Origin: an uncultured Bacilli bacterium
Lineage (GTDB): Bacteria; Bacillota_I; Bacilli_A; RF39; UBA660
Assembly (NCBI GenBank): GCA_947626515.1
Contig: CANQSL010000003.1
Location: 2,028 to 66,027, forward strand
Direction: 5' to 3'
DNA length: 64,000 nt
Both the position numbers and the translations under genes were made by a program. This document shows positions 2,138 through 63,425 of the stretch, piece after piece. Under the pieces are notes generated by a model. It was not told where the DNA came from and searched no databases. It was given only the letters and a program-made list of their open reading frames with translations. Within the stretch, counting starts at the first letter, position 1. Every line of letters starts with the position of its first letter.

Positions 2138-2138
2138 T

Positions 2139-39679: not shown

Positions 39680-39985
39680 TTATTTAGTTTCTATCTTAAT
39701 GTCAACACCACTTGGAACATCTAAGTGAGTTAAAGCATCAATAACTTCCTTACTAGGATCTTTTATATCAATAAGTCTTTTATGAGTACGCATTTCAAAT
39801 TGCTCTCTGCTATCTTTATATTTATGTACAGCTCTCAATACAGTAAATTTTTGTATTTCTGTAGGAAGAGGAATTGGGCCTGAAATATTAGCTCCCAATC
39901 TTTTAATAGTAGTAACAATTTTAGCTGCAGAATCATCAAGTACTTTATGATCATAAGCTTTTAATCTAATTCTTACTTTTGACAT
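39680..39985 (-). CDS. rpsJ: 30S ribosomal protein S10
   Basis: [17 protein letters not shown]...GPIPLPT...[28 protein letters not shown]. The ATG at 39985 is preceded by GGGAGGA. The 39-codon upstream extension in the track ORF is leader sequence. Confidence 0.96.
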
Positions 39986-40152
39986 TTTAAATGTCCTCCC
40001 TTCGTTTATATCTTTTGTATAAACATAGCTCCGTAACAAATTCCCCAATGCACCATTATTGTTAACAACGTCACCTGGTGTATCAGCAACCTTGCACATC
40101 ATTGCCAGTTAAACACATATCAAATTATACCCAATCATTCAGGAAAAATCAA
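39986..40152 (-). promoter_or_regulatory. S10-operon promoter and ~130-nt relatively GC-rich 5' leader
   Basis: The minus strand reads TTGATT (40152-40147), a 17-nt spacer, then TATAAT (40129-40124). The leader contains a GTTTATA/TATAAAC hairpin directly before the GAAGGGAGG RBS. Confidence 0.55.
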
Positions 40153-40421: not shown

Positions 40422-41666
40422 TTAACTATTATTCCATCCCATTATTTTTATTAATCTTTTATTAGGATAAACATAACCTTGTAAAGGATAGTTTTCTATA
40501 TTAATAGTATTAGAGTTTACTAATAAATCTAATATAAGATCTTTTTTCTTTATATTGCCAACAACTACTAACGTATGATTCCAACTATCATTATATCCAA
40601 CTTGTGTAATATCTCCAATTTCTCCTGAAAATATATTTGCATCTGTTATAGCACATAATCCAAATCCACTATTATTTTTTGCATATTGATAAAATTTAGA
40701 TACACCTGTCCACGAAGAGGATCTTCCTTTCTTTTCATTGCTTTCTATAATTTCAGTTCCATAATGTTTCCATTGTTCATCTCCTGAACCGATTATATCC
40801 ATAGGAATACCACCGTTATAAATTACTTGAGATGCAAAATTTTGACAGTTACCACCATATTCATCATATACTGCCCATTCTTTATTTCTTGTTGTTATAT
40901 ACTTTTTTGCATATTGTAAAGCTTTTTCTCTATCATATTTATTATCGCATTTAAAAGAAGGAATACCTTCTTTTAAAAACTCTTCTTGAGATTTTTTTAA
41001 ATTTTCAAATTCTAAATCAATAGTATCTTTATAATTTTTTAATAAGTTTTCAATATCTTTATCACTTTTAATATTATCTAATTCATTTGTAAACATAATA
41101 TAATAATCTTGTACTTTTCTAATACTTTCTATCTTGTATTCATTACCTTTTTTTATAAATGTAAATGTATTAGTTATACCACTAGCTTTTGAAGTTATAT
41201 CTTTCATAAATTTAAAATTAAAAGTATCGTTTTCTTTAAATTCAACAATTACATTATTTTCTTCTTTTTTTACATCAGTTATCTCTATTTCATAGCTGCC
41301 ATTAGATAAAGACATATCATTTAAAGCTTTACTTCTAGAATAAAGCAATAACTCTATAGCAGACTTATTAATTTTACTTTCTAATTCATTATCAAATAAA
41401 TACGACATATCTTCTAATTTTAATGTATATAAAGATTTATAATACTTATCCATATAATCAACAATAATATCTTTTATTTTTTCATCCACTTTATTACTAT
41501 TTTGTATATTATTTAAAAATGTTTTAGGAATAGAATCATTAATTATATTTTTATCTTCTTCTTTTTTTATATTTTTTAAAACTAATATAATAATAACAAT
41601 AACTATAATTGTTAAAATAATTTTTACTTCTTTTTTTAATCTTAATTTCATACTTCCTCTATTCAT
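40422..41666 (-). CDS. membrane-anchored protein with C-terminal putative amidase (NlpC/CHAP-like, Amidase_6-type) domain
   Basis: N-terminal TM helix (KIILTIIVIVIIILVL). The C-terminus has YDREKALQYAKKY..., YGGNCQNFASQVIYNGGIP as the Cys nucleophile context, and WNHTLVVVG as the His context. Confidence 0.55.
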   Translation of the reverse strand: MNRGSMKLRLKKEVKIILTIIVIVIIILVLKNIKKEEDKNIINDSIPKTFLNNIQNSNKVDEKIKDIIVDYMDKYYKSLYTLKLEDMSYLFDNELESKINKSAIELLLYSRSKALNDMSLSNGSYEIEITDVKKEENNVIVEFKENDTFNFKFMKDITSKASGITNTFTFIKKGNEYKIESIRKVQDYYIMFTNELDNIKSDKDIENLLKNYKDTIDLEFENLKKSQEEFLKEGIPSFKCDNKYDREKALQYAKKYITTRNKEWAVYDEYGGNCQNFASQVIYNGGIPMDIIGSGDEQWKHYGTEIIESNEKKGRSSSWTGVSKFYQYAKNNSGFGLCAITDANIFSGEIGDITQVGYNDSWNHTLVVVGNIKKKDLILDLLVNSNTINIENYPLQGYVYPNKRLIKIMGWNNS

Positions 41667-41793: not shown

Positions 41794-43560
41794 TCAATTA
41801 TTTCTTTTTAATCCATAAATCATTATTATAATATATACTGGTAATAAATAATATTCTGCAAGACCATATCTAGCCCAATAATAATAAGGTGTTGCAATTA
41901 ACAATGAAAATATAACTCCTAAACTAGGTGCAAGTGCAATAATCCATTTTTTATTATTAAATATTATTAATAGAATACAAATTAAAAATATGCACCAATT
42001 TATTATTGGTAAACTTATAAATGAATCTCTAGTAGTAAATATTTTAGTAAAGTCAAAATATTTATTTTCAAGAAAATTTTTCTTTTTTATACCATAAGAT
42101 TCTCTATCTATTTTGTTTAAATCACCAATAACAATATTATAAGTATCTTGATTTAAATCCCATTTATTAAATGCCCAATATCCATAAGTTGTAAGTCCCC
42201 ATCCTTGAATATATTTATATGGATTTTTTATTAGTAAACTTAAATAAGTTTTAAAGAATAGTGGCTTGTTATTATCAATATATTTAATATCAAAGTCCCT
42301 ATCCCACTTTAGCAAATCAACTACGCAAGGTCTGTAAGTTTCTTTATATTTATATATCGGCAACATATTATTTAATACTTCATATTCTTTTTCGTTTATA
42401 TTGCCATCATTAACAACAGTACTTGCCATTTGTTGTAATAAAACCGGTATACTCTCTGCAAAAGATTCTTTTATATTATATTTTTTATATATAGGAGATA
42501 ATATTCCTAAATAGATAAAAACCATTGTAGTACAAAAAATTATCAAAGTTCTTTTTTTAAAGTTCAATTTAATGAATATAATAGATATTAATGTAAATAA
42601 AACTACAAAGAAACCATTATTCCTAAATAATATTATTAATAAAAGCAATACTATATTTTTTAATAAAAACAAATAATTATTTAATAACTTTCCATTTGTT
42701 ATAATACAATCTATTAAACACAAAGTCCATAACATAATCGATATAGACCAAATAGGATCTCTCCATAAAGTAATAGTTTGATTTGCATAAAAAGGAACTA
42801 ATCCAAACATTAATATTATAAATATACATACTTTTTTTGATACTCCTTTATTTTTTAACCAACATATTAAATAACTTAGAGAAAACGCTAAATAAATCAT
42901 TTGTATCAAAGTATATATTGCTATTCCAATAGTAATATCTTTTTTTAATAAAGTTGCTAAATTTATACAAAAACTTAAGAAAAAAGTATATAATACAGTA
43001 TAATGATTACTTAATCTAGCGTATCCTAAAACTTGTTTAATACTATTTATAGAGTCAGCAAATATGAAGCCTGGATAATATATTAAAAAATATGGCAACC
43101 ACATAATAAATAATAATAGTGCTATTAAAAATACGTATTTTATTTTAGATACACCAATATTATTATTTAATTTAATTTTTTTAGTATATTTTTTTAATAA
43201 ATAAATTATAAAATTTTCTATATTATAATTACTTATAACAAGAGGTATAAAACCTATAAAATCTATAATTTTAAATTTTTCCATATAATTATATGTATAA
43301 GTTCCATAATATCCTGAAGCAGTTATAACTAATTTAGATCCCAATATTAAAAAGAAAGAAAATGCTATAGCAAAAATAGTTAACATAATTTTGTCAAATT
43401 TATTATTTTTTATATTTTTTACTCTTAAATATTTATCTAAATAAAGAAAGGCAAAAAATACTACTAAATACAATATCTTACTATTAGAATTATAAAACAT
43501 ATATTTTGTAAAAAATATACCACTTAAAATTATAAAGATATAATTAACTATTTTTTTCAT
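41794..43560 (-). CDS. polytopic membrane protein, candidate GT-C-like glycosyltransferase (paralogue 2)
   Basis: About 11 TM helices, with the conserved first-loop motif WLPYFLIYYPGFIFADS and a later WRDPIWS. A ~150-aa extracytoplasmic domain and 2-3 C-terminal TM helices follow. It is collinear with 43566-45323. Confidence 0.55.
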   Translation of the reverse strand: MKKIVNYIFIILSGIFFTKYMFYNSNSKILYLVVFFAFLYLDKYLRVKNIKNNKFDKIMLTIFAIAFSFFLILGSKLVITASGYYGTYTYNYMEKFKIIDFIGFIPLVISNYNIENFIIYLLKKYTKKIKLNNNIGVSKIKYVFLIALLLFIMWLPYFLIYYPGFIFADSINSIKQVLGYARLSNHYTVLYTFFLSFCINLATLLKKDITIGIAIYTLIQMIYLAFSLSYLICWLKNKGVSKKVCIFIILMFGLVPFYANQTITLWRDPIWSISIMLWTLCLIDCIITNGKLLNNYLFLLKNIVLLLLIILFRNNGFFVVLFTLISIIFIKLNFKKRTLIIFCTTMVFIYLGILSPIYKKYNIKESFAESIPVLLQQMASTVVNDGNINEKEYEVLNNMLPIYKYKETYRPCVVDLLKWDRDFDIKYIDNNKPLFFKTYLSLLIKNPYKYIQGWGLTTYGYWAFNKWDLNQDTYNIVIGDLNKIDRESYGIKKKNFLENKYFDFTKIFTTRDSFISLPIINWCIFLICILLIIFNNKKWIIALAPSLGVIFSLLIATPYYYWARYGLAEYYLLPVYIIIMIYGLKRNN

Positions 43561-43565
43561 AAAAT

Positions 43566-45323
43566 TTACTCCTTTTTAAAAGCATAAATTAATATTAAGA
43601 CATATACAGGTAAAAGATAATATTCTACGAGTCCATATCTTTGCCAATACGCATTTGGACTTGCTATAAATAATGAAAATATTACTCCTAAGCTCGGTGC
43701 TAAACTTATAAGAAATTTATAATTTTTCTTTATAATTAAAACTAAACATATAAAGAATATAAACCAATTTACTATACTTAGGCTTATAAATGTATCATCA
43801 ATTATAAAAATCTTTTTTAAATCAATAAATTTATTTTTTAATAAATCTTTTTCTTTAACATTTAAGTTGCTATGTGATAATTGGTTTATATCACCAAATA
43901 AAATATTGTTATTAACATTATTTAGTTCCCAATTATTAAACGCCCAATATCCATATGTTATAAGGCCCCAAGATTTTATATATTGAACAGGATTTTTTAC
44001 TAATAAGCTTAAATAAGTTTTAAAAAATAAATCTTTGTTTTCTTTTATATAATTATCATTAAAACTTGAATTCCATTTTAAAGTATCAACTATACATGGT
44101 CTATATACATCATAATATAGATATATTGGAGTAATTTTATTTAAAACTTCTAATTCTTTTTCATCAATATTTCCTTTATTAACTACTACACTTGCCATTT
44201 GTTGTAAAGGAACACCTAAACTATCTGAATAAGCTTCTTTTAAATTATAACGCTTGTATATTGGTGAAAGTATTCCCAAATATAAAAATACTCCTAAAAA
44301 ACATAGTAATGTCAAAACTTTAACATTAAATTTTATTGCCTTAAATATTTTTAAAATTATTAAAATAAGAAATGTAACAAGTATAACAAAGAAACCATTA
44401 TTTCTCGATAAAATAATTAATATAATCAATAATATATTTTTTAAAATAAATTTTATATTAAAAATTTCTTTATTATAAATACAATAATCTATTAATAGTA
44501 ATGTCCATAACATAACTGATATAGAAAATATTGTATCTCTCCACATTATTATTGTTTGAACTGCAAAGAAAGGAACTATTCCAAAAAGTAAGGTTATAAA
44601 AGTACATATCTTTTTATTTATTCCTTTGTTATTTAACCAATTTATTAAATAAGAAATTCCAAAAGCACTATAAATCATTTGTATTATCGTAGTTACTGCA
44701 ATAGCATTTGTTAAATTATTATTACACATATCTATTACAAATTTAAAATATAATGAATAAAAATAAGAAAAGTGATTGTTAAGATTTCCACTTAATGCTT
44801 GGTATAATGTAGAATTGCTATCTGCAATAACTATTCCAGGATAATAAATTAAAAAATAAGGTAACCACAATACAAATAAAACCAACATCAATAAAAATAT
44901 CTTTTTTATTTTATTGTTAAATAATGATTCTTTTAATTTTATTTTATTTAAAATTTTCATTTTATATATTATGTATTTTAAAATAAAATATATATCTGTA
45001 CATATAAATATTGCTCCATATAAATCTATTAATAAAAAATCTTTTATATAATTAACTAAATAATTCCCTTGTCTAAAACTAGCTTCTATATTAAGTTTAT
45101 AACCTAAAATTATAAAAAAAGTAAAGATTAATGAAAACATAAGTAATAAAATTTTACTTCTATTGTCCATCTTTATTTTCCATGCTTTTTTAATTAAAAA
45201 AATTAGTAAGAAAGATATTATCAATGATAAATAAAATCCACAATTTATTCTAAAATAAATAGTAAAGAACAAACCGTTTATTAATCCTAATAAATATAAT
45301 AAAAACAACATTATTCTTTTCAT
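43566..45323 (-). CDS. polytopic membrane protein, candidate GT-C-like glycosyltransferase (paralogue 1)
   Basis: Same architecture as paralogue 2, with WLPYFLIYYPGIVIADS, WRDTIFS and shared blocks (LGILSPIYK.YN.KE, LQQMAS.VVN.GNI.EKE, YRPC.VD.LKW, APSLGVIFSL). Confidence 0.55.
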   Translation of the reverse strand: MKRIMLFLLYLLGLINGLFFTIYFRINCGFYLSLIISFLLIFLIKKAWKIKMDNRSKILLLMFSLIFTFFIILGYKLNIEASFRQGNYLVNYIKDFLLIDLYGAIFICTDIYFILKYIIYKMKILNKIKLKESLFNNKIKKIFLLMLVLFVLWLPYFLIYYPGIVIADSNSTLYQALSGNLNNHFSYFYSLYFKFVIDMCNNNLTNAIAVTTIIQMIYSAFGISYLINWLNNKGINKKICTFITLLFGIVPFFAVQTIIMWRDTIFSISVMLWTLLLIDYCIYNKEIFNIKFILKNILLIILIILSRNNGFFVILVTFLILIILKIFKAIKFNVKVLTLLCFLGVFLYLGILSPIYKRYNLKEAYSDSLGVPLQQMASVVVNKGNIDEKELEVLNKITPIYLYYDVYRPCIVDTLKWNSSFNDNYIKENKDLFFKTYLSLLVKNPVQYIKSWGLITYGYWAFNNWELNNVNNNILFGDINQLSHSNLNVKEKDLLKNKFIDLKKIFIIDDTFISLSIVNWFIFFICLVLIIKKNYKFLISLAPSLGVIFSLFIASPNAYWQRYGLVEYYLLPVYVLILIYAFKKE

Positions 45324-45325
45324 AA

Positions 45326-45613
45326 TTAATAACCTATTAATTGAAAATTAACTATATTTTCGTTAGCTAAATCTACAAAATTTTCTATTTTATCTATTTT
45401 ACTTTTTATTGTATCTAAACTATCATAAAAAATATATGGTTTATATTTTAATATATCTTTTATATTTGAAATTCCTATATTTAATAAATATTTAATAATA
45501 TTTTCTATATTCTCTTGATTATTCAAAAATTCTTCATAATCTAAATCGTCTAAATTTTCTTTAATATCTATTATATCTAAATCTGTTAAATTATATTTTT
45601 TAAGATAATCCAT
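45326..45613 (-). CDS. hypothetical 95-aa helical protein carrying an mTERF-like repeat motif
   Basis: Tightly coupled within the operon: 2 nt from the next gene and a 14-nt overlap with the previous one. IIKYLLNIGISNIKDILKYKPYIFYDSLDTIKSKIDKI resembles a single mTERF-type helical repeat. Confidence 0.5.
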   Translation of the reverse strand: MDYLKKYNLTDLDIIDIKENLDDLDYEEFLNNQENIENIIKYLLNIGISNIKDILKYKPYIFYDSLDTIKSKIDKIENFVDLANENIVNFQLIGY

Positions 45614-45902
45614 AATTTACCTCCAATCCAATAGTTTCTTTTATAAAATCTAAAGTAGATTGATTTATATACGAATTATATAAAATACTAAATAGTAAAG
45701 CATTTTTTGGTTCTATACCTTTTTTTATTAAAATATTATAATTTCTCAAAACTTTATATCTAGATATTACAGTATCTTTAAACTTATAAATATATTTATT
45801 ATTTGGAATTCTATTATTACTTTCCAAAGATTCTATATATTTATCTTCTAATATATTTTCATCAAACATATACTCTAAATCACTACTATAAATAATATCC
45901 AT
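45600..45902 (-). CDS. hypothetical 100-aa helical protein
   Basis: In-operon ORF. LIKKGIEPKNALLFSILYNSYINQSTLDFIKETIGL loosely repeats the motif seen in its neighbours. Confidence 0.45.
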   Translation of the reverse strand: MDIIYSSDLEYMFDENILEDKYIESLESNNRIPNNKYIYKFKDTVISRYKVLRNYNILIKKGIEPKNALLFSILYNSYINQSTLDFIKETIGLEVNYGLS

Positions 45903-45931
45903 ACATAAATTATAATTTGGAATTTCCGTTT

Positions 45932-47392
45932 CTAAATTAGCAAAATTTTCGTTTTTAAAATCTCATTAACAAAATCTTCTTCAGTATCTAATTTTAATCC
46001 ACAATATTTTTTTGTTACATCATTTTTTATATACCCATCAAATTTATTTGAGAAAATGTTAGAATAATATTCATTATAATTTAAATCTTGCTTTAACTTG
46101 TATAATAGTAATATTATTTGATCTTTAAAAGTTCCTAAAGCAGAAGGATACCTATTAATATAGTTTGAATTTGGATAAGTATCTGCATATTCACTATGTA
46201 GTAGTCCTAATTCAATAAATTGATCTAAACTATCTAAAGCATTAGAAAAAGTTAGAGCAGATGTAGGAAAGCTTTCGCCATCTTCTAATATTCCATAATA
46301 TTTGTAAATATTATAATTATTAACTATTTTATAGTGTGGAGTTTTTAAAGCTTTTACGTTATCTTTTCTAGCTAAAGAAGCAGATAATCCTTTAGAATTA
46401 ATAAATGTTTCATTCAATTTCATCTCATCATATGAAATCATATATGCTTCACTTCTCAAAGTTCTTTTTACATCATTTTCTTTTGATATATTATTTCTTT
46501 TTTGTCTACCTTTATATTCTTTATTTTTTTGATTTATCCATATATTTGGAGTTTTGAAATAAAAATCAATTAACTCTCTATTATTAATTAAATATTCTAA
46601 TCTACTATTAATAGTATCTACATCTCCATATAAAGATATAATAATTAATACTCTAGGTGGAAATTTATTAATAATCCTTCTTTGAGTTAAATACTCTAAT
46701 ATACTTATTGACTTTTCTAAATCTATATATTTTAAAACTTCATCACTATTTTTTGTTAATTCATCTATTACTTCTTCTCTTTTATCGTATTTAGAATATA
46801 AATTTTTTAATGTATTTAAATCAACTTTCTTATTTTTTTCTATATTATCATTATAATTTTTTATACTTATTAATAAATTAAGTTTATCATTAAAATCCAT
46901 ATCTTCTATTAAATTAAATAAATAAGAAAAATCATCTTTATCTAATATTTCATTATCTTCAAATTTTTGATTGATACTTTCTAATTTTATTATTTCATTT
47001 TCCATATCTTCTATATTAAATATAGAATCATTTTTTAACTTTCTTTTTAATTTATCTCTATAAGATTTTAATTCATTTAAAAAGTATTCTATAAAGGATT
47101 TTTGTGTATCAGTTAAAGATATTACAAAATCATTCATTTTAATAGCTTTACATACTATTATCAATTTATTTAATAATGTTTTATATTCTTCTTTGTTTTC
47201 TTCTTTAAATATATTTTTTAATGTATCATCATCAATTTCTATATCTGCTAAATTACTAATATCTTCTTCTAAATGATTTATCGAATCATTTAAAAGATTA
47301 ACTTTATTCTTTTGAGAAGGAATATTACCTAATTCAAAATATTTTTTCTCTAATTTTTTTAATCTTTTCGCTATTACATTTTTTATATTCAT
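45932..47392 (-). CDS. hypothetical 486-aa helical-repeat protein
   Basis: The ATG at 47392 lies 2 nt after the stop of the HTH gene; the track start at 47404 is a GTG. The N-terminal half is coiled-coil-like. The C-terminal half contains EYLTQRRIINKFPPRVLIIISLYGDVDTINSRLEYL, which shares Y.D..DTI.S[KR][IL] with the 95-aa protein. Confidence 0.55.
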   Translation of the reverse strand: MNIKNVIAKRLKKLEKKYFELGNIPSQKNKVNLLNDSINHLEEDISNLADIEIDDDTLKNIFKEENKEEYKTLLNKLIIVCKAIKMNDFVISLTDTQKSFIEYFLNELKSYRDKLKRKLKNDSIFNIEDMENEIIKLESINQKFEDNEILDKDDFSYLFNLIEDMDFNDKLNLLISIKNYNDNIEKNKKVDLNTLKNLYSKYDKREEVIDELTKNSDEVLKYIDLEKSISILEYLTQRRIINKFPPRVLIIISLYGDVDTINSRLEYLINNRELIDFYFKTPNIWINQKNKEYKGRQKRNNISKENDVKRTLRSEAYMISYDEMKLNETFINSKGLSASLARKDNVKALKTPHYKIVNNYNIYKYYGILEDGESFPTSALTFSNALDSLDQFIELGLLHSEYADTYPNSNYINRYPSALGTFKDQIILLLYKLKQDLNYNEYYSNIFSNKFDGYIKNDVTKKYCGLKLDTEEDFVNEILKTKILLI

Positions 47393-47394
47393 TA

Positions 47395-47589
47395 TCAACA
47401 CCACTCAATCAATAAATTATAAGTTTTAAAATAAAATAAATATTCATCTTCATTATTTTTAAACAAATCAATAAATTTGTTTAAACTTACACCTAGTTCA
47501 AATGATAATTCTTCTAAATCAACATTTTTTTGTTTAATTAATTCTAAACAATCAACTTTGATATTATTACATAATTTTCTAATATCCAT
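47395..47589 (-). CDS. 64-aa putative helix-turn-helix protein (candidate antitoxin/regulator)
   Basis: VDLEELSFELGVSLNKFIDLF has an XRE-like HTH pattern. Its start overlaps the upstream gene by 11 nt (GGCTATGGATATTAG). Confidence 0.45.
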   Translation of the reverse strand: MDIRKLCNNIKVDCLELIKQKNVDLEELSFELGVSLNKFIDLFKNNEDEYLFYFKTYNLLIEWC

Positions 47590-48859
47590 AGCCTACACCT
47601 TTAAGTTTACTCTCTAATGTATTCATTAAATTTTCTTGTAAAGATTTATCATATGTATTGTTTTTTATATCATTTATAATTTTTAATATATTATTTTCGT
47701 ATTTGTTTATTATATAATTAGTTTCATCAAATATTTTCTTTCTAGGTCCTATTGCAAGTATTAATAGATGTTTATCATCTATATTCATATATGAACAAGA
47801 AACTAAAGATGAACTTCTAATATAAATTTTATTTTTAAAAGTTTTATTATCTGTCTGTAAAACTTTATTTTTTAAATCATTTTGTCCAAGTTTCATATTA
47901 TTTAATAATGATATAGTATTTTTTTTAAAATTAGCATCCATATCTTCTATATCAAATAATAAATTTTGATTATTAGTAGCAAATACTAAATTTTTATATT
48001 CTTCTGCAACTTCATTCGGTTTATTTAAATCTTTCATTTGTTTAATAAACTTTATATCTTCATTAATATAATCTATTAAAATATCTATAATAACTTTGTC
48101 TGGTTTATCTGAATTTATTTCTTCTTCTAATTGTTTCTTATCCTCAATTAATTTAAATAAATATATGTCTAATTTATCCTCATCATATTCAATAGTAGTA
48201 TTTGTATCTTTTATAAATTTTCCTATTGATAATGCATAATTAATTTGTCTACTTGTCTTAGTTGATATTCTATCATAAAAGAAAGTGATTAATTCATTGG
48301 CTTCCTCTCTTAATTTATTACATTTATCTAAAACAAAACTATCTATATTCTCTTCTTTTTTTATAACTGTATCTTTACAACTATTAAATGCTAAATAAGC
48401 AACTAATGATAGTTTATCTTCATCTTGAAAATGTATTATTTCCATTATAGATAAAACTTCTTTAATTTCTAAATTATTTGATACAGCATTATTAAGTTTA
48501 TTTATTTGACTAATTATATTCTCTTTTTCACTTAATAAATTATCTTTTTCTTTTATTAAGCTTTTAACATTTAAAGCAATAGTTTCTAAAGATAAAGAAA
48601 CTTGTTCTATATCAGTAACATTCATATTATAAAAATAATTTAAAAGTTTTAAATTTTGTTCCAACATTGGAAAAGTATTTCTAAATAATTCTATATTTGT
48701 ACAAATATTTTCTATATTAATAGTCATTCCTTCTAATTTAGATATAGTATCTAATTTTTTATTTGTATTATCTATTTGTTTTTCTAATGTTTTTATTTTA
48801 TGTGAAATCATTTTTAAATACTTATTTAAAGAAGCTTCACCTAATTCTTTTTTATACAT
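47579..48859 (-). CDS. coiled-coil protein with C-terminal RelE/ParE/Gp49-like domain
   Basis: The C-terminal ~110 aa read NLVFATNNQNLLFDIEDMDANFKKNTISLLNNM...KNKIYIRSSSLVSCSYMNIDDKHLLILAIGPRKKIF. This follows the RelE/ParE pattern (..f...a.kdl..l......i...i..l...lyrlRvgdyRviY.idd..lvIL.ighRk.iY). I prefer the ATG at 48859 (GGAAGTGA RBS) over the ATG at 48874, which has no RBS. Confidence 0.5.
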   Translation of the reverse strand: MYKKELGEASLNKYLKMISHKIKTLEKQIDNTNKKLDTISKLEGMTINIENICTNIELFRNTFPMLEQNLKLLNYFYNMNVTDIEQVSLSLETIALNVKSLIKEKDNLLSEKENIISQINKLNNAVSNNLEIKEVLSIMEIIHFQDEDKLSLVAYLAFNSCKDTVIKKEENIDSFVLDKCNKLREEANELITFFYDRISTKTSRQINYALSIGKFIKDTNTTIEYDEDKLDIYLFKLIEDKKQLEEEINSDKPDKVIIDILIDYINEDIKFIKQMKDLNKPNEVAEEYKNLVFATNNQNLLFDIEDMDANFKKNTISLLNNMKLGQNDLKNKVLQTDNKTFKNKIYIRSSSLVSCSYMNIDDKHLLILAIGPRKKIFDETNYIINKYENNILKIINDIKNNTYDKSLQENLMNTLESKLKGVGYGY

Positions 48860-48951
48860 AAAATCACTTCCCATATTTTATATAAATTATATCATAAAAT
48901 AATATCTATTTCTATATTTAAGTGTTATAATTTTTTTAAGAGGTGACTTTG

Positions 48952-49887
48952 ATGATAAGTGTTATAATTCCAACTTTTAATGAAGAAGGAAATATATTGG
49001 AATTAAATAAAAAATTATTAAATAATTTAAAAAATTTAGATTATGAATTAATATATATAGATGATGGCTCTAATGATAATACTTTAAAAAAAATTAAATC
49101 GATAGCTTTAAAAGATGAAAATATAAAATATATATCATTTAGTAGAAACTTTGGGAAAGAATCTGCTATGTATGCTGGTTTAAAATACGCTAAAGGAGAT
49201 TACATTTGCATAATCGATTCTGATTTACAACAAAATCCAAAATATATTGTTAGTATGTACGAATATTTAAAAGATAATGATGAAGTCGATCAAATTGTAA
49301 TGGTAATGAAAAATAGAAAAAATGAAAATATAATAAAAAGAAACTTAAAAAAAATATTTTATAAAACTATTAATAAATTATCAGATATAAATTTAATAGA
49401 TGGCGCAAGTGATTTTAGAATGTTTAGACGCAATGTTTTGAATGCAATATTATCTTTAAATGAAAAAAATAGATTTTCTAAAGGAATTTTTTCTTGGATT
49501 GGCTTTAATACTCAATATATGTATTATGATGTAGAAAAAAGATTTAGTGGAAAAACTAAATTCAATAATAAAGAACAAATTAGCTATGCAATAAAAGGAA
49601 TCACAAATCACTCCATAAAGCCTTTATATTTATCTACTATTATTGGTACAGTGATTTCCTCTATATCATTAATTTATATTATTATAACTATTGTTAAAGT
49701 TCTAATGTTTGGAAAAGATACTCCTGGTTATGCATCTTTATTAGTAGTAATATTATTTTTAGGAGGCATACAATTAATTTTTATAGGAATATTAGGTACA
49801 TATATTGGAAAAAATTATATAGAAACTAAAAATAGACCTATATATATAGAAAAAGAAACTAAAGGATTTGATAATACTATTCTTTAG
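48952..49887 (+). CDS. GtrB/CsbB-like family 2 glycosyltransferase (polyprenyl-phosphate sugar synthase type)
   Basis: ISVIIPTFNEEGNI...YELIYIDDGSNDNT...SRNFGKESAMYAGLKYAKGDY.CIIDSDLQ, followed by two C-terminal TM helices (the GtrB topology). The ATG at 48952 has an AGAGGTGA RBS. Confidence 0.8.
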   Translation: MISVIIPTFNEEGNILELNKKLLNNLKNLDYELIYIDDGSNDNTLKKIKSIALKDENIKYISFSRNFGKESAMYAGLKYAKGDYICIIDSDLQQNPKYIVSMYEYLKDNDEVDQIVMVMKNRKNENIIKRNLKKIFYKTINKLSDINLIDGASDFRMFRRNVLNAILSLNEKNRFSKGIFSWIGFNTQYMYYDVEKRFSGKTKFNNKEQISYAIKGITNHSIKPLYLSTIIGTVISSISLIYIIITIVKVLMFGKDTPGYASLLVVILFLGGIQLIFIGILGTYIGKNYIETKNRPIYIEKETKGFDNTIL

Positions 49888-49893: not shown

Positions 49894-52143
49894 TTATTCG
49901 TCTTGGAAGAAATCGTCAAAATATTGATCATCTGTTATTGACTCATCTTCTTTATCATCTTTTGGTTTATTTTCCTTTGATTCTTCTTTAGCATTTTCCA
50001 ACAATATATCATTAAATGATTTATTTTTATTGCTACTATTATCTATTATTTCTACATCGCTATCACTATCTAAATCATCATCTATTTCAAATTTATCTAT
50101 TGAATCATTTTTATCTATAGGTTCATCTTTTGTTTCTAAATCTTTATTATCAGATTTATTTTCCTGTTTTTCTTTTTCTAATCTCTCTTCTTCTTCTAAT
50201 TCAGCAATTTTAGCATCTATTCTCTTTAATAAATCATCTACGTCAAAATCATTTTCACCAGCAAAAGGATTAGGTTGATTTAAACTATCTTTAGAGCCCA
50301 TTGGTGGTTTTGAATTTTCAAATGGGTTAGACATATTTGCATTAGCAATAAACGGATTATTAGGCATAGTATCACCAAAATGGAATCCATTTCCCATTGG
50401 TGGCATACTGCCAAAACTACTCATTACTTTATCTTGCTTTTTTGATTTAACAAATTCCTTAATGTCAAAAATACCTATTTCTCCTCTTTTTCTTTCAGAA
50501 AAATCAGCTTTAGGATAAGTTTGTCCCCAGTTTATTTCGTAACTTGGTTTTAACTTAGTTTTAAAAGGATTTAGTCTAGATCTTATTAAAACAACTTCAT
50601 TCATTTTCATTTTTTGTAAGTCACTAACTGTAATTAATGGTGTAGAGGCAGTTTTATCTTTATCTTTAGACTTTTTCTCACCACATAATTTACTTATTTC
50701 TTCTAATGCTGCTAACTCAGTTGTTAATAAGTAAATTAAATTTCCACAGTTACTTCTAATTGTTTCTGCATCTTCTTTGCCATAAACATCATTTAATTGT
50801 GCAAAGTTCTGAATAATAAATGTAAATCTAATTGCTCTACTTCTTGCGGCAGTAACCATAGTTGTTACATCTTTTAAAGGTGGCATATTTGCAAACTCAT
50901 CCAAAATAAAATTAGTTCTAACTGGTAACTTTCCACCACTTTCTTGAGCTACATCAATTAAAGTTTCATAACATTGTTTAATAAATATTGTCGCTAAAGC
51001 ATGATATGTAGTTTTTTCATCATGTATAACCATAAATACAGCAGTAGGAACTTTTCCTATTTCCCTCATATTAAAGTCGCTACGCGATAACATTTCAGAA
51101 AGTTGTTCACGACTGGCAAAAAGACGTATTTTTTGTCTAAAAACTGATAGAATTCCACCTTTTGTTTCAGCCGGTGAATTAATTGTATTAGAAGCAAATA
51201 TATATGGTGTACTAGATTCACCTTTTAATCCAAAATATTCTTTAATATAATTAGAAGTTGCAAACTTTTCTTCTCCAACAGTTGTTACATAACTTATACT
51301 ATTTAAATTAATTTCTTCTTCTTTTGCATCTTCAAATAATCCCAAAGCTACACCTGAAAAATAGTCTGCTGCACTATTTTCCCAAAATGGATCTTGTGCT
51401 TTTTTATCTTTTAAAATATTTAATGCTACGTCATCTACTAGTTCTGTAGCTTTATCCGTATTTCCTTTTTTGTATAATTGATATGGTAGTGTTAATGGAT
51501 TCCAACAATTTCCATATTGTGGATTACGGAAATTTAAAACAATAATTTTATATCCTCTTGCTCTTAACAAATTTGAATGTTGTTTATATATTTCTCCTTT
51601 TGGATCTGTTATAATCATACTTTCTTTTGCTTTAGCTAAACTATAAACTAGAGGGTCAACTACACTTGTAGTTTTACCACTACCAGTTGCTCCTATAACT
51701 AATGTATGATTTTCACCATTATCAACCCACATATCTTTACCGTTATTTACTAAAACTGTACCTGCTGCTTTTGAATCAGGTTGATTAATAGGAACTTTAA
51801 CAATTTTATATGAATTTTTTATTTCTCTTTCACTTGCCCACCTAGCATATCCATCTTCATTTTTTTCATTAATTTTAAAACCAATACCTGGCCCCTTTTC
51901 TCTTTCAAAAATATATGATGAAACGCTGAAAAAAATTGCAATTAATACAATTATGAATAATAGTAAAGTAGGAAGTATGTATTTTGAACTAAATCCTATA
52001 ATTGGATTTATACCATAAAAAACTCCTTCATTGATTATTCCCAATGCATTAGATACAACTATACTTGATAAGAATAATAAAAATATACAAAATATTATAA
52101 ATATAATTAAATCTTTCGATGAAACCCTAAATTTCATAAACAT
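49894..52143 (-). CDS. type IV coupling protein (VirD4/TraG family)
   Basis: Two N-terminal TM helices. Walker A is HTLVIGATGSGKTTSVVDP, followed by ITDPKGEIY and NPL, with Walker B FILDEFANMP. A ~190-aa low-complexity acidic/Asn-rich C-terminal tail is present. Confidence 0.85.
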   Translation of the reverse strand: MFMKFRVSSKDLIIFIIFCIFLLFLSSIVVSNALGIINEGVFYGINPIIGFSSKYILPTLLLFIIVLIAIFFSVSSYIFEREKGPGIGFKINEKNEDGYARWASEREIKNSYKIVKVPINQPDSKAAGTVLVNNGKDMWVDNGENHTLVIGATGSGKTTSVVDPLVYSLAKAKESMIITDPKGEIYKQHSNLLRARGYKIIVLNFRNPQYGNCWNPLTLPYQLYKKGNTDKATELVDDVALNILKDKKAQDPFWENSAADYFSGVALGLFEDAKEEEINLNSISYVTTVGEEKFATSNYIKEYFGLKGESSTPYIFASNTINSPAETKGGILSVFRQKIRLFASREQLSEMLSRSDFNMREIGKVPTAVFMVIHDEKTTYHALATIFIKQCYETLIDVAQESGGKLPVRTNFILDEFANMPPLKDVTTMVTAARSRAIRFTFIIQNFAQLNDVYGKEDAETIRSNCGNLIYLLTTELAALEEISKLCGEKKSKDKDKTASTPLITVSDLQKMKMNEVVLIRSRLNPFKTKLKPSYEINWGQTYPKADFSERKRGEIGIFDIKEFVKSKKQDKVMSSFGSMPPMGNGFHFGDTMPNNPFIANANMSNPFENSKPPMGSKDSLNQPNPFAGENDFDVDDLLKRIDAKIAELEEEERLEKEKQENKSDNKDLETKDEPIDKNDSIDKFEIDDDLDSDSDVEIIDNSSNKNKSFNDILLENAKEESKENKPKDDKEDESITDDQYFDDFFQDE

Positions 52144-52184
52144 CCCCTCAACATAAATATTATAAACTAATATGATTTTTTTTT

Positions 52185-52868
52185 CTACATTTTATTAGCT
52201 TTTTTAAATTTTATATAAAATATGAAAACTGCAATTATTAAAACTAATAATAAAATTAATATTACAACTTCATATTTTATATTATTAATCTTCTCAAATT
52301 TTGCTCTAGTTTCTTCTTCATTAAATAAAATTTCTATTTCCTTATCTTTATAATTATTTTTATTTATAAACCAATAATATACGTCATCTTCTACTTTATC
52401 GGCATTGCTATTTTCAACTATTTTATCAGTTTTAAATGATATCTCTATATTTTTTAAATCTTCATAATTTGTAAAAACATTATTAATATCACTAAATTTT
52501 AGCTTACTATTATTTATAATTATGCTATTAAATAAAATATGCATAATAAAGCTATCACTAATTTCACTTTGAGAAAATTTATAATTTAAATTAATTCCAT
52601 AATTTGAACCATCATCTATTAAACTTTTATTATAAAATTTATATTTATTTAAATTTTCATTTAAAGCTAATTCTTCTTGATCATCCAAATAATTTATAGA
52701 TATATTATAATTTAAATATTCATCAATAGGAATACCATTCAATTCTTTACTTTTTCCATTAAGTATATTTAAATCTTCTTTAAATTCACCATCTATATAT
52801 TCTAAATTATACTTAGCATTACATCCAGTTAAAATTATGAATAACATAAGAATTATTATTTTCTTCAT
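52185..52868 (-). CDS. lipoprotein with additional C-terminal TM helix
   Basis: Lipobox MKKIIILMLFIILTGC. A C-terminal hydrophobic helix (VVILILLLVLIIAVFIFYI) is followed by KFKKANK. Confidence 0.6.
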   Translation of the reverse strand: MKKIIILMLFIILTGCNAKYNLEYIDGEFKEDLNILNGKSKELNGIPIDEYLNYNISINYLDDQEELALNENLNKYKFYNKSLIDDGSNYGINLNYKFSQSEISDSFIMHILFNSIIINNSKLKFSDINNVFTNYEDLKNIEISFKTDKIVENSNADKVEDDVYYWFINKNNYKDKEIEILFNEEETRAKFEKINNIKYEVVILILLLVLIIAVFIFYIKFKKANKM

Positions 52869-52874
52869 AATAAC

Positions 52875-54773
52875 CTATCCTTTACAATTATTAGCATAAT
52901 AATTAGACATGCTAACTAATGTATATTTATTAAATTCACCATATTTATATTCACTAAATACTATTCCATATCTAGCCCCTTTTGCCTCTGCAACTACTAA
53001 AGAAGAACCAGTATTTTTTATAATTAACATTACATGTGAATTATTTGCAGCAATATCACCAGCAACAGCAGCATTAACTGTAGTTTTATTGCCAAGATTT
53101 TTAAAACTTCTCGCTACTATTGGAGTAAAGTTAGTACATCCCCCATTTTTTAATGCCCATGAAACAAAGCCACTACAATCCAATCCATCAGCTTGATAAG
53201 ATCCTGCTGGTTGTGCTGAGGAACCAAATGCTGTAACTCTAACTTTAGCTCCCCAATTACCATTTATTCCTTCTGAAATATTTCCATGTCCTCCACCCCA
53301 TAAATAAGGTATTACTATTTTTTCGTTTAAAGCTCCTTGTATTAAATCATAAGCCGCTATTGAAACAGCATCTCCCGTTCCTACTCCAGCTTTTATAACA
53401 TCATTTTTTATAAGTTGATTCCAATTATTTAATTTATCACTTCCAATTTGAGATATTATTGTCTCTCCAGCTGATAATTTATCAAATCCTCCACCAGAAA
53501 GTGATGTTTGTGAAATATCAGAAATACTACCTCCAGAGCAAACTACACTTTTTGTATTTATTATTAATTCTGGTATTTTATTTGTAATGTTAGTTTCCCC
53601 AGATGTAACTGATAAATCTAAATAATTATTAGAAAAACTATTTTTTAACTTATTGTTATATTCTTCATTCTCTGTTGAAACAATAAATATTTTGTTGTTA
53701 TAATTTTTAGATAAATCTTTATAATAATCAATATATGAATCAGCATTTTCTGCATCAGTATCACCTAAACTAAATACTAAAATCATATTTGAATCATTTA
53801 TCAATTTTGATTCTATTTCTTGTTTATTATTATTGAGCCAATCATAATTAGCACCACTAGAAGTTAAATTATTAGATGTATTGCTAACTTTATTATCACC
53901 AATATAAAAAATTCTTGAATTTATATCATCAACCGTACAAGAACTACTGCTTCCAACATATGAACTTGCTAAAGCAGTAGTATTAGTAAGTTTTAAATTT
54001 TCTATATCTTTTCCTGTTAACATTACTACAAACATTATAAGTATATAACATAAAAAACCAAAACTTACTATAGCCAATTTCATAGGGAATGATGCTATAG
54101 AAGATAAGATAAAAGTACCTTTTTCCTCTTTTTCTTCTTCATCGTTATCATTATCTGTATCTTTATCATCTATATCTAAATCATCAACTGGTAATGGTAA
54201 TTCATCGTCAATTTTGTTTTCAGAAACAGTTTCTTTAGCAGGTGCACTTGCTTTTTGAGATACTACACCTTCAACTTTTTTTGATTTATTTGATGAACCA
54301 GTTGTTAATTTATCACTATTAGGAACACTATTATTATTTCCAGCAAAGTTATTCATTCCTTTAATTCCTGACATATTATTCATACCTGAGGCAGAAGATG
54401 AAGCAGCACCTCCAGCATTAGGAGCCCCACTAGAACCTAATCCTCCTATCATATCATACCCTTCCGAAGCTGCATCTATTAACCCTGTTTCATCTAATTT
54501 GTTTGCTATTTTCCCTACAGCATTACCTACCATAGGTGTTTTTTCGATTACCGTTGCAGCTTGATCAGCTACTTTATCTAAAGCTTCATCAACTTTGTCG
54601 CCAACTACTGGCATATTAGATGCTTGCGATATTACTCCACCTGTAAAATAATCTCCTACAGCTTTAGCAGCAAGCTTAGTTGTTTTTTGTACAGCTTCGT
54701 GTTCTTGTTCTTCTTCTGTTTTTTCTTCTTTAGATGGTTCTTCATCATTTCTATTTGCTTTATACTTTTCCAA
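52875..54773 (-). CDS. bitopic protein with C-terminal NlpC/P60 peptidoglycan endopeptidase domain
   Basis: TTG start at 54773 behind a G7 Shine-Dalgarno. About 225 aa of cytoplasmic G/A/S/D-rich region, then one TM helix, then an extracellular region ending in PYLWGGGHG...GLDCSGFVSWALKNGG (NlpC/P60 Cys motif). Confidence 0.75.
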   Translation of the reverse strand: MEKYKANRNDEEPSKEEKTEEEQEHEAVQKTTKLAAKAVGDYFTGGVISQASNMPVVGDKVDEALDKVADQAATVIEKTPMVGNAVGKIANKLDETGLIDAASEGYDMIGGLGSSGAPNAGGAASSSASGMNNMSGIKGMNNFAGNNNSVPNSDKLTTGSSNKSKKVEGVVSQKASAPAKETVSENKIDDELPLPVDDLDIDDKDTDNDNDEEEKEEKGTFILSSIASFPMKLAIVSFGFLCYILIMFVVMLTGKDIENLKLTNTTALASSYVGSSSSCTVDDINSRIFYIGDNKVSNTSNNLTSSGANYDWLNNNKQEIESKLINDSNMILVFSLGDTDAENADSYIDYYKDLSKNYNNKIFIVSTENEEYNNKLKNSFSNNYLDLSVTSGETNITNKIPELIINTKSVVCSGGSISDISQTSLSGGGFDKLSAGETIISQIGSDKLNNWNQLIKNDVIKAGVGTGDAVSIAAYDLIQGALNEKIVIPYLWGGGHGNISEGINGNWGAKVRVTAFGSSAQPAGSYQADGLDCSGFVSWALKNGGCTNFTPIVARSFKNLGNKTTVNAAVAGDIAANNSHVMLIIKNTGSSLVVAEAKGARYGIVFSEYKYGEFNKYTLVSMSNYYANNCKG

Positions 54774-54787
54774 AAAAACCCCCCCTT

Positions 54788-55288
54788 TTAATCAAGTTCT
54801 ACAGTATACGCATCTAAATAAACTTCATAATCCATTATTGAATTTTCTACAAAAATATAAAAGTTTTCTGCATCATCATATACATAAAATACTTTTTTTC
54901 CATCAATATTACCTATACTGTATTTAGATAGTTGGGAATTAATAAATTCAAGACTTAAATTATTTACAATATATTCATTAAATCTATCTAAACTCCCAAA
55001 TTTTAGTTCTCTATACTTTTCGTTTAAACTGTCATAAGCCATTTGGCTATTATTAATCATATTGTTTTTGAAATCATTTAAATAAATTTTAATAACTGAT
55101 TCATCAGTCATATAAACTGGCAAATATTCATTTGCATCATAGTGTTTCATGGAAAAGTTATTTTCTTCTTTTTCTATTACTTCATCACTAAATTTATCAC
55201 TTGAAAATCTATAATATATTAAAAAAGCTATTAAAACAAGGAAAAAACAAATTATAATGATTTTTTTATTGTTTAAAATATTTTCCAT
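54788..55288 (-). CDS. small N-terminally anchored protein, VirB8/TcpC-like candidate (paralogue a)
   Basis: One TM helix followed by a ~130-aa alpha+beta domain. Shares ..LNEKY.. and the overall pattern with the 55306-55815 product. Its position matches VirB8-like/TcpC-like components. Confidence 0.4.
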   Translation of the reverse strand: MENILNNKKIIIICFFLVLIAFLIYYRFSSDKFSDEVIEKEENNFSMKHYDANEYLPVYMTDESVIKIYLNDFKNNMINNSQMAYDSLNEKYRELKFGSLDRFNEYIVNNLSLEFINSQLSKYSIGNIDGKKVFYVYDDAENFYIFVENSIMDYEVYLDAYTVELD

Positions 55289-55305
55289 AACCTTTCCTCC
55301 ATTTA

Positions 55306-55815
55306 TTATTTAAATATTTCTCCATTATATGGAGCTATATTAAATATTTGATTATTTGTATCTAATTCTAATACAAAATATTCATTTCTTTCAAATTGAC
55401 TAGATTCAATAGTATCAATATATAAATTTCCTAAGACATAAAATTTATATATTCCTTCTTGCAATGTTTCATAATACATTTTCTTTGAAACAAATGAATA
55501 AGTTGTATCATTAAAATTAGGTAAAAATGTATAAATATTTGATTTTGTTATTTTATTATCACTTATATATTTTTCATTTAAAACTTTTAATAAACTATCT
55601 TTATCGTCACTTTGCAAATATTGCATATATTTTGAAATACAAGAATTTACTGTAAAAAACCTAGAATAATCAGTAACTAAAGAAATTTTTTCTTCATTAT
55701 TAACATTGACTTTTTTTTCATTAGAAGGATTTTGAAAAGAATATATAATTAAACTAATTATTACTAAACATACACAAATAATTAATAATTTATAATCACT
55801 TTTTTTTAACTTCAT
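55306..55815 (-). CDS. small N-terminally anchored protein, VirB8/TcpC-like candidate (paralogue b)
   Basis: Same architecture as 54788-55288. Confidence 0.4.
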   Translation of the reverse strand: MKLKKSDYKLLIICVCLVIISLIIYSFQNPSNEKKVNVNNEEKISLVTDYSRFFTVNSCISKYMQYLQSDDKDSLLKVLNEKYISDNKITKSNIYTFLPNFNDTTYSFVSKKMYYETLQEGIYKFYVLGNLYIDTIESSQFERNEYFVLELDTNNQIFNIAPYNGEIFK

Positions 55816-55825
55816 AAATCCTCCT

Positions 55826-57904: not shown

Positions 57905-57917
57905 ATAAATCACTTCC

Positions 57918-59717: not shown

Positions 59718-60267
59718 TACTCATCACCGTCCCAAATTCTGTTTTCATATTACCATTAAAGAAACTATCTAAAATTACCCTTAAATCATCATCATTTACT
59801 TGTCTTGAATTTAATCCAGTAGATGCTAAATTACTAATTAAGGTATGTATTCTTTTTTGTAATATTTCTGGTTTTTTATCTCTAAATAATATGAAATATT
59901 CGGTATCAACAGCATTAATTGCAGAACTTCTAAATCTTTCCCCCTTTTCGATATCCTGATTTATTATCTTTCTAATTTGTTGAGTAGCAGCATTGGCATG
60001 CATTAATTGCAATTGTGCCAAATATAAATTTATATCTACTGGTCTATCACAAACAACTAACCAAAACTCATAATCAATAACATTATAAAAATTTCTTAAA
60101 TTAAATATAATATTATTTTGTTCTTGATAATCAAGTATAAATATATTTTTAGGTTCTACTTTAATTCCAGTAACTAAATAATTATTGTCTAACTGTATCA
60201 TTCCATTTCTAATTTGTTTAATAGGAACCCAATCTTCAGCATATTTACTCTCACTTGTCTTTGCCAT
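59710..60267 (-). CDS. VirB4 N-terminal-domain-like protein (separate 185-aa ORF)
   Basis: WVPIKQIRNGMIQLDNNYLVTGIKVEPKNIFILDYQEQNNIIFNLRNF follows the N-terminal pattern of single-chain Firmicute VirB4 proteins. It overlaps the ATPase ORF by 8 nt (ATGTCTAG), with a GGTGAT RBS. Confidence 0.65.
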   Translation of the reverse strand: MAKTSESKYAEDWVPIKQIRNGMIQLDNNYLVTGIKVEPKNIFILDYQEQNNIIFNLRNFYNVIDYEFWLVVCDRPVDINLYLAQLQLMHANAATQQIRKIINQDIEKGERFRSSAINAVDTEYFILFRDKKPEILQKRIHTLISNLASTGLNSRQVNDDDLRVILDSFFNGNMKTEFGTVMSNV

Positions 60268-60565: not shown

Positions 60566-60578
60566 TTTTTATTCCTCC

Positions 60579-62987: not shown

Positions 62988-62994
62988 CTCACCT

Positions 62995-63345: not shown

Positions 63346-63425
63346 AGTTATTCCTCAATCTATAAAAAAGTATTTTACAAATAAAAGTATAACAAAAAAA
63401 TAGACAACTGTAAAGTTGAAAGATA

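Follow-up and report, generated by a model that had tools for sequence, protein, structure and literature searches.

A tightly packed gene block in an uncultured Bacilli bacterium as a probable juxtaposition of a putative DUF6020-type glycosylation module and a recurrent four-gene cassette

Introduction

Whether a tightly packed run of genes necessarily encodes a single functional unit is the question raised by a block of seven minus-strand open reading frames (ORFs) in an uncultured Bacilli bacterium of the RF39 lineage (assembly GCA_947626515.1, contig CANQSL010000003.1, positions 2,028 to 66,027), a stretch of 64,000 nucleotides that is hereafter called the window. The block lies between the S10 ribosomal operon on one side and a conjugative type IV secretion system (T4SS) module on the other, a position that an earlier note, made from the sequence alone, had given correctly, and a six-frame ORF list reproduced exactly the seven minus-strand ORFs and the junctions of -11, +2, +29, -14, +2 and +5 nt which that note had reported. 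The note had read these ORFs as one translationally coupled operon that links soluble, nucleic-acid-type proteins to two large membrane proteins, and had been unable to map the combination to any described system. The present data point to a different organization, in which the block is likely to combine two independent modules whose juxtaposition is specific to this species and which are probably transcribed from the promoter region at 48860-48951. The first module would consist of two DUF6020 paralogues (41794-45323) together with a divergently oriented glycosyltransferase family 2 (GT2) gene, and would represent a new, DUF6020-type case of a known kind of glycosylation system. The second would be a self-contained cassette of four genes, A, B, C and D (45326-48859), moving or persisting as a unit in uncultured low-GC Bacilli.

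Results

The evidence that carries this reading comes from the genomic neighbourhoods of both halves of the block. Cassette A-B-C-D recurs as a unit in eight other genomic contexts of uncultured low-GC Bacilli, for which flanks of at most 10 kb on each side, and less on short contigs, were retrieved. Across all eight, gene D overlaps or abuts the end of gene C and gene A lies ahead of C, and gene B is kept between A and C in seven; homologues of gene A were recognized in L008-L013, L037 and L039 with hidden Markov model (HMM) E-values of 1e-49 to 1e-179. The surroundings vary. In L008, which holds A, C and D without B, an IS30-like gene adjoins the cassette; L009 has frr upstream; L010/L011 has TniA/TniB-like transposon genes upstream and rpsF-ssb-rpsR downstream; in L012 the cassette is followed by pcrA and ligA; L013-L015 has ftsEX-pcsB upstream and a ParA island downstream; L037/L038 places it between cysS and uvrB; and in L039/L040 ezrA, thiI and a gene for a small acid-soluble spore protein (SASP) lie upstream and ackA downstream, with SpoIVA also carried by L039. 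HMM scans found no DUF6020, GT2 or VirD4 gene within the retrieved flanks of these eight contexts. Approached from the membrane half, four home-made cassette HMMs detected cassette genes at none of the 21 DUF6020 loci in GTDB species genomes, and two further DUF6020 loci (L006 and L007) were likewise without them, giving 0 of 23 overall. Because the two halves co-occur in 0 of 8 cassette contexts and 0 of 23 DUF6020 contexts, the modules are separable. The earlier note had held that an adjacency never seen elsewhere would be fortuitous, and by its own measure the proposed link between soluble and membrane genes fails; conservation of the block, which it had also put to a neighbourhood comparison, was borne out for the four soluble genes. 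These form a real, conserved and translationally coupled set to which neither profile libraries nor structure databases assign a function.

It is conceivable that nucleic-acid-type and membrane proteins nonetheless act in a single complex, as a novel defence, exclusion or secretion-accessory system. Such a system would accord with the common strand of all genes, with junctions of -14 to +5 nt and no predicted terminator, with an arrangement that is identical in five same-species contigs and with the adjoining T4SS. However, apart from the lack of co-occurrence in either set of contexts, the divergent GT2 gene is an evident partner for the DUF6020 genes, which also stand in a canonical Gtr-type context at another locus (L027, see below), and gene C of the cassette is frameshifted in this strain whereas both DUF6020 genes are intact. 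A single functional system thus appears very improbable.

The frameshift bears on the number of genes in the block. ORF3 (486 aa) and ORF4 (100 aa) together make up one 595-aa gene: when the 486-aa ORF served as query, a metagenome contig with 99.8% identity was found to encode a protein of 595 aa, and the intact gene is also present on four more same-species contigs from other samples, at about 20x coverage. In the DNA alignment the window reads GATTTTGTTAATGAGATTTTAAAAACG where the other contigs read GATTTTGAAAGATTTAAAAACG, with 5 extra bases in a 13-nt stretch, and the surplus, at about 45950-45975 of the window, resolves into three small indels within 13 nt relative to the five same-species contigs. 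An exhaustive HMMER search of 1.84 billion representatives yielded 82 relatives of gene C, of which 41 have E<1e-30; the majority are between 590 and 685 aa long, with alignments spanning nearly the whole query, and the most conserved motif of the family, the C-terminal ISRxKVLR, falls in the 100-aa fragment of the window. Given the five intact contigs and the full-length relatives, the unit comprises six genes, of which one is frameshifted, and the +29 junction represents, on this sequence comparison, a frameshift scar; the earlier count of seven holds for ORFs and not for genes. The indel pattern is odd for a single mutation and could reflect an assembly or consensus error, or a real mutation, and comparison with a second strain gave too few synonymous and non-synonymous differences for any decay of gene C to be assessed. 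Gene order in the five same-species contigs (type IV coupling protein, GT2 on the opposite strand, 426 aa, 64 aa, 595 aa, 95 aa, DUF6020, DUF6020, Amidase_6, S10 operon) is that of the window, except that gene C is intact there. The starts of the two divergent genes are those chosen by gene callers on the same-species contigs, with GGAAGTGA preceding the gene A ATG at 48859 and GAGGTG preceding the GT2 ATG at 48952, and given these starts the limits reported earlier for the divergent gap are correct.

Within this gap the best minus-strand sigma-70-like site is TAGAAA-17-TATAAT with a TG extension (48914..48886). Promoter-like matches were not enriched (94 found against 116 expected in shuffles), a scan of this type being uninformative in DNA of 19% GC, and the site is consistent with a promoter, no more. 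Operator-like inverted repeats in the gap were AT-rich chance matches only, and, leaving aside the DUF6020 paralogue pair itself, so were the direct repeats found on either side of the cassette. No terminator was predicted inside the block. With such tight junctions, no predicted terminator and a promoter-like site in the gap, it is plausible that the block is co-transcribed as a whole in the species of the window.

Base composition had also been taken as a sign that the block was acquired horizontally. The spot counts behind that argument (12 G+C in the line at 45361 and 30 in the line at 37201) are correct, and the block region has 19% GC against 30% for the ribosomal operon. However, G+C content at third codon positions (GC3) is uniform across the window, at 0.05-0.13 for the seven ORFs as compared with 0.07-0.18 for the ribosomal genes and 0.06-0.19 for the remaining genes of the window, and the unrelated genes murT (15% GC, the lowest of the window genes) and ComEC (17%) are as AT-rich as the block. 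Since GC3 is uniform, the argument for horizontal transfer from GC fails, and the GC difference reflects amino-acid composition or protein conservation, not foreign origin. The window as a whole has 25% GC, a GC skew that is negative almost throughout and nearly all of its genes on the minus strand, which indicates an extremely AT-biased genome with strong strand bias. One of the few plus-strand islands is a MurT/GatD-like pair (lipid II amidation; 21288-23224), which shows that the organism has peptidoglycan and that a very low GC content is normal for its own genes.

Turning to the first module, the two large membrane proteins are paralogues, as had been noted, with 52% identity; in place of the approximately 11 transmembrane helices first counted, a hydropathy scan and an AlphaFold2 (AF2) model give about 13-15 transmembrane segments and an extracytoplasmic domain of about 150 aa. 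DUF6020 was their sole Pfam match at E<=1, the YfhO profile being unmatched, and NCBIfam returned nothing. The AF2 model of paralogue 2, built from a 52-sequence alignment, reached a predicted local distance difference test score (pLDDT) of 91.1 and a predicted template-modelling score (pTM) of 0.92, and in a Foldseek search of the PDB its top 23 matches were all glycosyltransferases of the GT-C fold (probability up to 1.0), including Pmt4, Pmt1/2, STT3, AglB, ALG9, ALG12, AftB, DPY19, ArnT and EmbC. Residues D169, D268, R313, N315, D415 and K418 (paralogue 2 numbering) are invariant in 52 homologues; D169 sits just after the transmembrane segment 140-160, and it and D268 are candidates for catalytic residues. 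From the model and the fold search, both DUF6020 paralogues are predicted to be GT-C-fold membrane glycosyltransferases. It is possible that DUF6020 is instead a Wzy-like polymerase, a WaaL-like ligase, a permease or some other transporter, as the Foldseek E-values are weak, WaaL and transporters appear at ranks 24-38 (probability <=0.06) and a sequence-level match to solved GT-C enzymes is lacking. However, the 23 best structural matches without exception, the presence of the conserved Asp residues and genomic contexts with GtrA, with a GtrB-like GT2 or with UbiA and a flippase all argue against a function other than glycosyl transfer, which is accordingly considered improbable.

The product of the divergent GT2 gene is best matched in NCBIfam by PgfS (NF047588), at 295.9 bits against a cut-off of 500, and is also matched by the ArnC-like model PRK10714 (E 3e-37); both the PgfS and the ArnC models align over the full length, and two C-terminal transmembrane helices occupy residues 233-251 and 266-284. 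By sequence it is a GtrB/CsbB/PgfS-type enzyme (GT-A fold) that is PgfS-like without being an equivalog, and it is predicted to synthesize a polyprenyl-phosphate sugar and to work together with the products of the two DUF6020 genes. A GT2 gene lies within 10 kb at 12 of the 21 GTDB loci, and tandem DUF6020 pairs were found at L022, L027, L033 and L036. The order at L027 is GH25-lectin, GtrA flippase, DUF6020, GT2, DUF6020 and a GtrB-like GT2, the last of which directly follows DUF6020 and matches the window GT2 at E 2e-84, so that L027 has, as judged from sequence, the makeup of a textbook Gtr-type cluster; at L006, DUF6020 is accompanied by a UbiA-family prenyltransferase and a Wzx-like flippase. 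Downstream of the window's DUF6020 pair, across a 127-nt gap with no predicted terminator, an Amidase_6 gene occupies the same position in all same-species contigs and may belong to the envelope module with DUF6020. Its protein is 100% identical in a second strain, as against a difference of about 2% for the DUF6020 genes, and no Amidase_6 gene was seen next to DUF6020 among the 21 GTDB loci. The window holds a second pair of GT2 genes, divergent from one another (2139-3131 on the minus strand and 3265-4290 on the plus strand) and 50% identical in the catalytic domain; as their products have no transmembrane segments they are cytoplasmic, and they are unrelated to the GtrB-type GT2.

That the block maps to no described system held for the cassette, for which no significant library match was found, and not for the membrane half of the block, which maps to Gtr/Pgf-type glycosylation. 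The cassette proteins of the window have no significant match in Pfam, NCBIfam, PHROG or PADLOC (PADLOC-DB 2.0 and PHROGs giving nothing below E 0.01 for the block ORFs), and a hydropathy scan found no hydrophobic segment in any soluble product of the block. Pfam scans were extended to 62 gene C family members, to the C-terminal domains of six gene A products, and to six homologues of D and eight of B, and PDB profile searches with the gene A C-terminal domain, B, C and D gave no significant match; PDB matches to LEDGF, Ocr, PcfF and Toxin B (E 0.02-0.9) were dismissed as spurious.

Gene A encodes a variable, helical and coiled-coil-like N-terminal part followed by a conserved C-terminal domain of about 110 aa, with total lengths of 331-661 aa among its homologues; its single-sequence AF2 model was unusable (pLDDT 42). 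Neither the window protein nor, in Pfam, six C-terminal domains gave a Pfam or PDB match for that domain, and a relationship between genes A and C was rejected (hhalign probability 0.7%). As for gene B, the length of 64 aa given earlier is correct, while its description as a helix-turn-helix (HTH) protein is backed by sub-threshold matches, namely to HTH_AraC in three of eight members (best E 0.02), to HTH_26 in one of eight and to winged-HTH types in a few; from these the small helical product may be an HTH protein. The arrangement of a large-protein gene followed by an overlapping 64-aa HTH-like gene invites the interpretation that A and B are a HigB/RelE-type toxin and its HTH antitoxin, that is, a type II module with two extra genes, and there is a local, in-register resemblance between IYIRSSSLVSCSYMNIDDKHLLILAIG in gene A and KIKLRSSGYRLVYQVIDEKVVVFVIS in RelE. 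The RelE sequence used for this comparison is 100% identical to annotated relE, and annotated plasmid genes also supplied the six sequences of a RelE-family profile. However, hhalign of an eight-sequence profile of the A C-terminus against that six-sequence profile gave a probability of 1.2%, and against single RelE and HigB-2 sequences 0.1-1.9%; neither Pfam at E<=10 nor the PDB profile searches gave a match to RelE, ParE, HigB or Gp49; and gene A products have 330-660 aa, as against approximately 90-110 aa for such toxins. The RelE/ParE-like C-terminus proposed earlier for gene A is thus unsupported statistically, and a toxin-antitoxin identity for A and B seems quite doubtful.

The intact product of gene C is all-helical, and its family has no Pfam match (62 members scanned) or PDB sequence match. 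The helical product of gene D is homologous to gene C residues 195-267 (hhalign probability 73%, E 3e-5). Matches to mTERF are sub-threshold throughout, with 14.6 bits against the 23.1 needed (E 0.015) for gene D in Pfam, E 0.025 for PDB entry 3m66, and E 0.005 for one of 52 gene C family members. A 615-aa and 95-aa pair in L037 (246-2382), 6 kb upstream of the real cassette, was considered as a second C-D pair and rejected, HMM and hhalign both being negative.

How the cassette is maintained may be approached through its distribution. With 82 clusters among the representatives searched, the gene C family is rare, and it came to light only through the exhaustive search; a word-indexed search with gene C and the C-family profile was saturated by low-complexity words and returned the same-species protein and two weak matches only. 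Locus scans of GTDB genomes, JGI metagenomes and IMG/VR found no member of the family, a weak negative given their narrow peptide patterns, and tblastn gave no match for genes C and A against plasmids or for gene C against phages. Within L010 (GCA_944363605.1) the region 191-3102 carries DUF6431, a TniA-like transposase (rve and Mu-transpos_C), an AAA_22 ATPase and a 78-aa ORF, with the cassette following directly, and there the cassette resembles cargo carried at the end of a Tn552/Tn5053-like element that has inserted next to rpsF.

The cassette may alternatively be a vertically inherited cellular system particular to the lineage of spore-forming low-GC Bacilli, such as a structural or regulatory complex associated with the nucleoid, with division or with sporulation. 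This would be in keeping with known copies that are all chromosomal, on contigs of up to 1.38 Mb, with the Bacilli label of all three contigs that carry an organism label, with the purely housekeeping neighbours in L009, L037 and L039 (the last with SASP and SpoIVA genes), with helical and coiled-coil proteins that lack an enzymatic domain, and with absence from plasmid, phage and IMG/VR collections. However, the cassette occupies a different locus in every genome, its neighbours in four contexts are mobile-element genes (the T4SS in the window, the TniA/TniB-like transposon in L010, the IS30-like gene in L008 and the ParA island in L013), gene C is disrupted in this strain and the family is rare, and an inherited cellular system is judged somewhat unlikely.

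The features of the block and of the adjoining T4SS module are collected in Table 1. The latter is of the Firmicutes type, extends from 49894 to 64000 entirely on the minus strand and runs off the end of the window, and neither a relaxase nor an integrase of this element is in view within the window. On the ribosomal side, the S10 ORF (39680-40102) has 140 aa from its first ATG, whereas callers on same-species contigs take an internal start that gives 101 aa, and translation probably does not include its N-terminal 39 codons. On the minus strand, 2021-2092 holds a leader of ribosomal protein L21 (RF00559, 41.7 bits), upstream of rplU-type small genes (1117-2001), and ordinary chromosomal genes surround the ribosomal cluster, among them those for ComEC (competence channel; 7658-9679), a T2SS-F/ComGB-like protein (23990-25630), FtsA (18725-19966) and a P-type ATPase (13657-15987).

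Table 1. Features of the block and its neighbours, in window coordinates.
Feature	Position	Strand	Remarks
Amidase_6-domain gene	40422-41666	-	Pfam Amidase_6 E 1e-25; N-terminal transmembrane segment
DUF6020 paralogue 2	41794-43560	-	588 aa; Pfam DUF6020 E 3e-22
DUF6020 paralogue 1	43566-45323	-	585 aa; Pfam DUF6020 E 3e-18
Gene D (ORF D)	45326-45613	-	95 aa, helical; overlaps gene C end by 14 nt; in ORF list
Gene C	45600-47392	-	595 aa when intact, all-helical
ORF4	45600-45902	-	100 aa; C-terminal part of gene C
ORF3	45932-47392	-	486 aa; N-terminal part of gene C
Gene B (ORF B)	47395-47589	-	64 aa, small helical; overlaps gene A end by 11 nt; in ORF list
Gene A (ORF A)	47579-48859 (to 48874 in ORF list)	-	426 aa; alternative start 48874 gives 431 aa
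Divergent gap, gene A / GT2	48860-48951		gene A ATG 48859, GT2 ATG 48952
GT2 gene	48952-49887	+	Pfam Glycos_transf_2 E 9e-37
VirD4-like coupling protein (CD1115 family)	49894-52143	-	last gene of T4SS module
NlpC/P60-like protein	52875-54773	-	T4SS module
M23 peptidase + lysozyme	55826-57940	-	T4SS module
VirB4/TraG-P-loop ATPase	57918-59717	-	T4SS module
802-aa protein without Pfam match	60579-62987	-	T4SS module
T4SS-pilin-like protein	62995-63345	-	T4SS module

Discussion

Taken as a whole, the neighbourhood data favour two independent modules that happen to adjoin in one species, and against this several observations must be weighed. The cassette contexts were found by contig look-ups for gene C family members, and only eight neighbourhoods were inspected. 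The junction between gene D and the DUF6020 pair is 2 nt with no predicted terminator, so that the modules are probably co-transcribed, and a species-specific functional link between cassette and DUF6020 could still exist. As to mobility, the cassette had no match in plasmid, phage and IMG/VR collections, no mobile-element genes were seen in the L009, L037 and L039 contexts, and no enzymatic or toxin domain was found in the cassette. For the membrane module, Foldseek E-values were weak (0.02-1.4), with TM-scores of about 0.3, and a PDB profile search found no sequence-level link from DUF6020 to solved GT-C enzymes; weak fold-search scores are, however, usual for the divergent GT-C superfamily. 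No paper naming DUF6020 was found in the literature searched, which thus offered no donor, acceptor or activity for the family. Finally, no GtrA homologue and no small protein with at least 3 transmembrane segments is present in the 64-kb window; a flippase could be encoded elsewhere.

In multi-component transmembrane glycosylation, a GT-A enzyme makes a sugar linked to undecaprenyl phosphate (C55-P), the product crosses the membrane by means of a flippase, and the sugar is then transferred outside by a GT-C enzyme (PMC8035078, PMC5836110), and in the Pgf system one GT-A enzyme (PgfS) serves with two GT-C enzymes of the YfhO type, PgfM1 and PgfM2 (PMC12041528, PMC5856776). By analogy, and as far as family membership can indicate, the membrane-anchored GT-A enzyme of the window would use a nucleotide sugar to charge undecaprenyl phosphate with a sugar on the cytoplasmic side, the lipid-linked sugar would be flipped across the membrane, and the two DUF6020 paralogues, GT-C in fold by model and fold search, would transfer it outside, possibly sharing one donor synthase as PgfM1 and PgfM2 share PgfS. 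Candidate acceptors are a cell-wall polymer and Ser/Thr-rich surface proteins.

No observation points to an action of the cassette proteins on the glycosyltransferases. A tentative guess, less likely than not and only slightly more probable than a lineage-specific cellular complex, is that the cassette would be a dispensable accessory module of a nucleic-acid-binding or addiction-like kind, in which the small HTH-like B might regulate or neutralize A while the helical-repeat C might work with its mini-paralogue D. A bolder proposal would see in it an undescribed, self-contained four-protein system that acts on nucleic acids as mobile-element cargo, for example in addiction, defence or exclusion. 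Its members would be a coiled-coil protein whose C-terminal domain is novel, a miniature HTH-like protein, a helical-repeat protein of 600 aa and one module of the latter encoded separately as a copy. This proposal is regarded as unlikely.

The analysis has a bearing on how such loci are read. DUF6020 becomes a candidate GT-C enzyme of Gtr/Pgf-type envelope glycosylation in gut Firmicutes, a function open to testing, and field reviews explicitly call for more GT-C enzymes to be found through structure prediction (PMC8035078). Genes may be packed tightly without forming a functional unit, as here the packing joins two separable modules, and the +29 junction hid a frameshift. Further, A-B-C-D is delimited as a new set of protein families, of about 80 clusters and unannotated in any library, and thus a candidate for structural and functional study.

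With regard to known systems, the cassette resembles HigBA-type type II toxin-antitoxin modules in that gene A is followed by an overlapping, small and possibly HTH-encoding gene B, sometimes beside mobile-element genes. However, there is no statistically supported similarity to RelE, ParE or HigB, the gene A product is 3-6 times longer than such toxins, and the A-B pair is always found together with two more conserved genes, C and D. The mTERF proteins, which are organellar and eukaryotic, offer a likeness to the all-helical C and D, in that D and one C-family member give weak mTERF matches and D repeats an internal module of C, although these matches lie below the family threshold (14.6 against 23.1 bits).

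For the membrane module the likeness is to the Gram-positive three-component systems CsbB/GtcA/YfhO, GtlA/GtcA/GtlB and GacI/GacK/GacL (PMC8035078, PMC5836110), in which, as in the window, a membrane-anchored GT2 enzyme with C-terminal transmembrane helices adjoins a polytopic GT-C protein, and the DUF6020 relatives at other loci likewise occur with flippases of the GtrA or Wzx type and with a GtrB-like GT2. The putative GT-C proteins of the window differ from these systems in being DUF6020 and not YfhO, GtlB or GacL, with no detectable sequence similarity to them, in forming two tandem paralogues with no flippase gene in the locus, and in being set apart from the GT2 gene by the unrelated four-gene cassette. 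Compared with the Pgf system of Streptococcus mutans (PgfS, PgfM1, PgfE and PgfM2; PMC5856776, PMC12041528), the window has neither an epimerase gene nor adjacent adhesin genes, a protein acceptor being a possibility only; its GT2 falls below the PgfS equivalog cut-off, and its membrane proteins carry DUF6020 where PgfM1 and PgfM2 carry YfhO. However, PgfS is the best NCBIfam match of the window GT2, the best structural matches of DUF6020 are protein O-mannosyltransferases, and both loci combine one GT-A with two GT-C enzymes, those of the window being so predicted.

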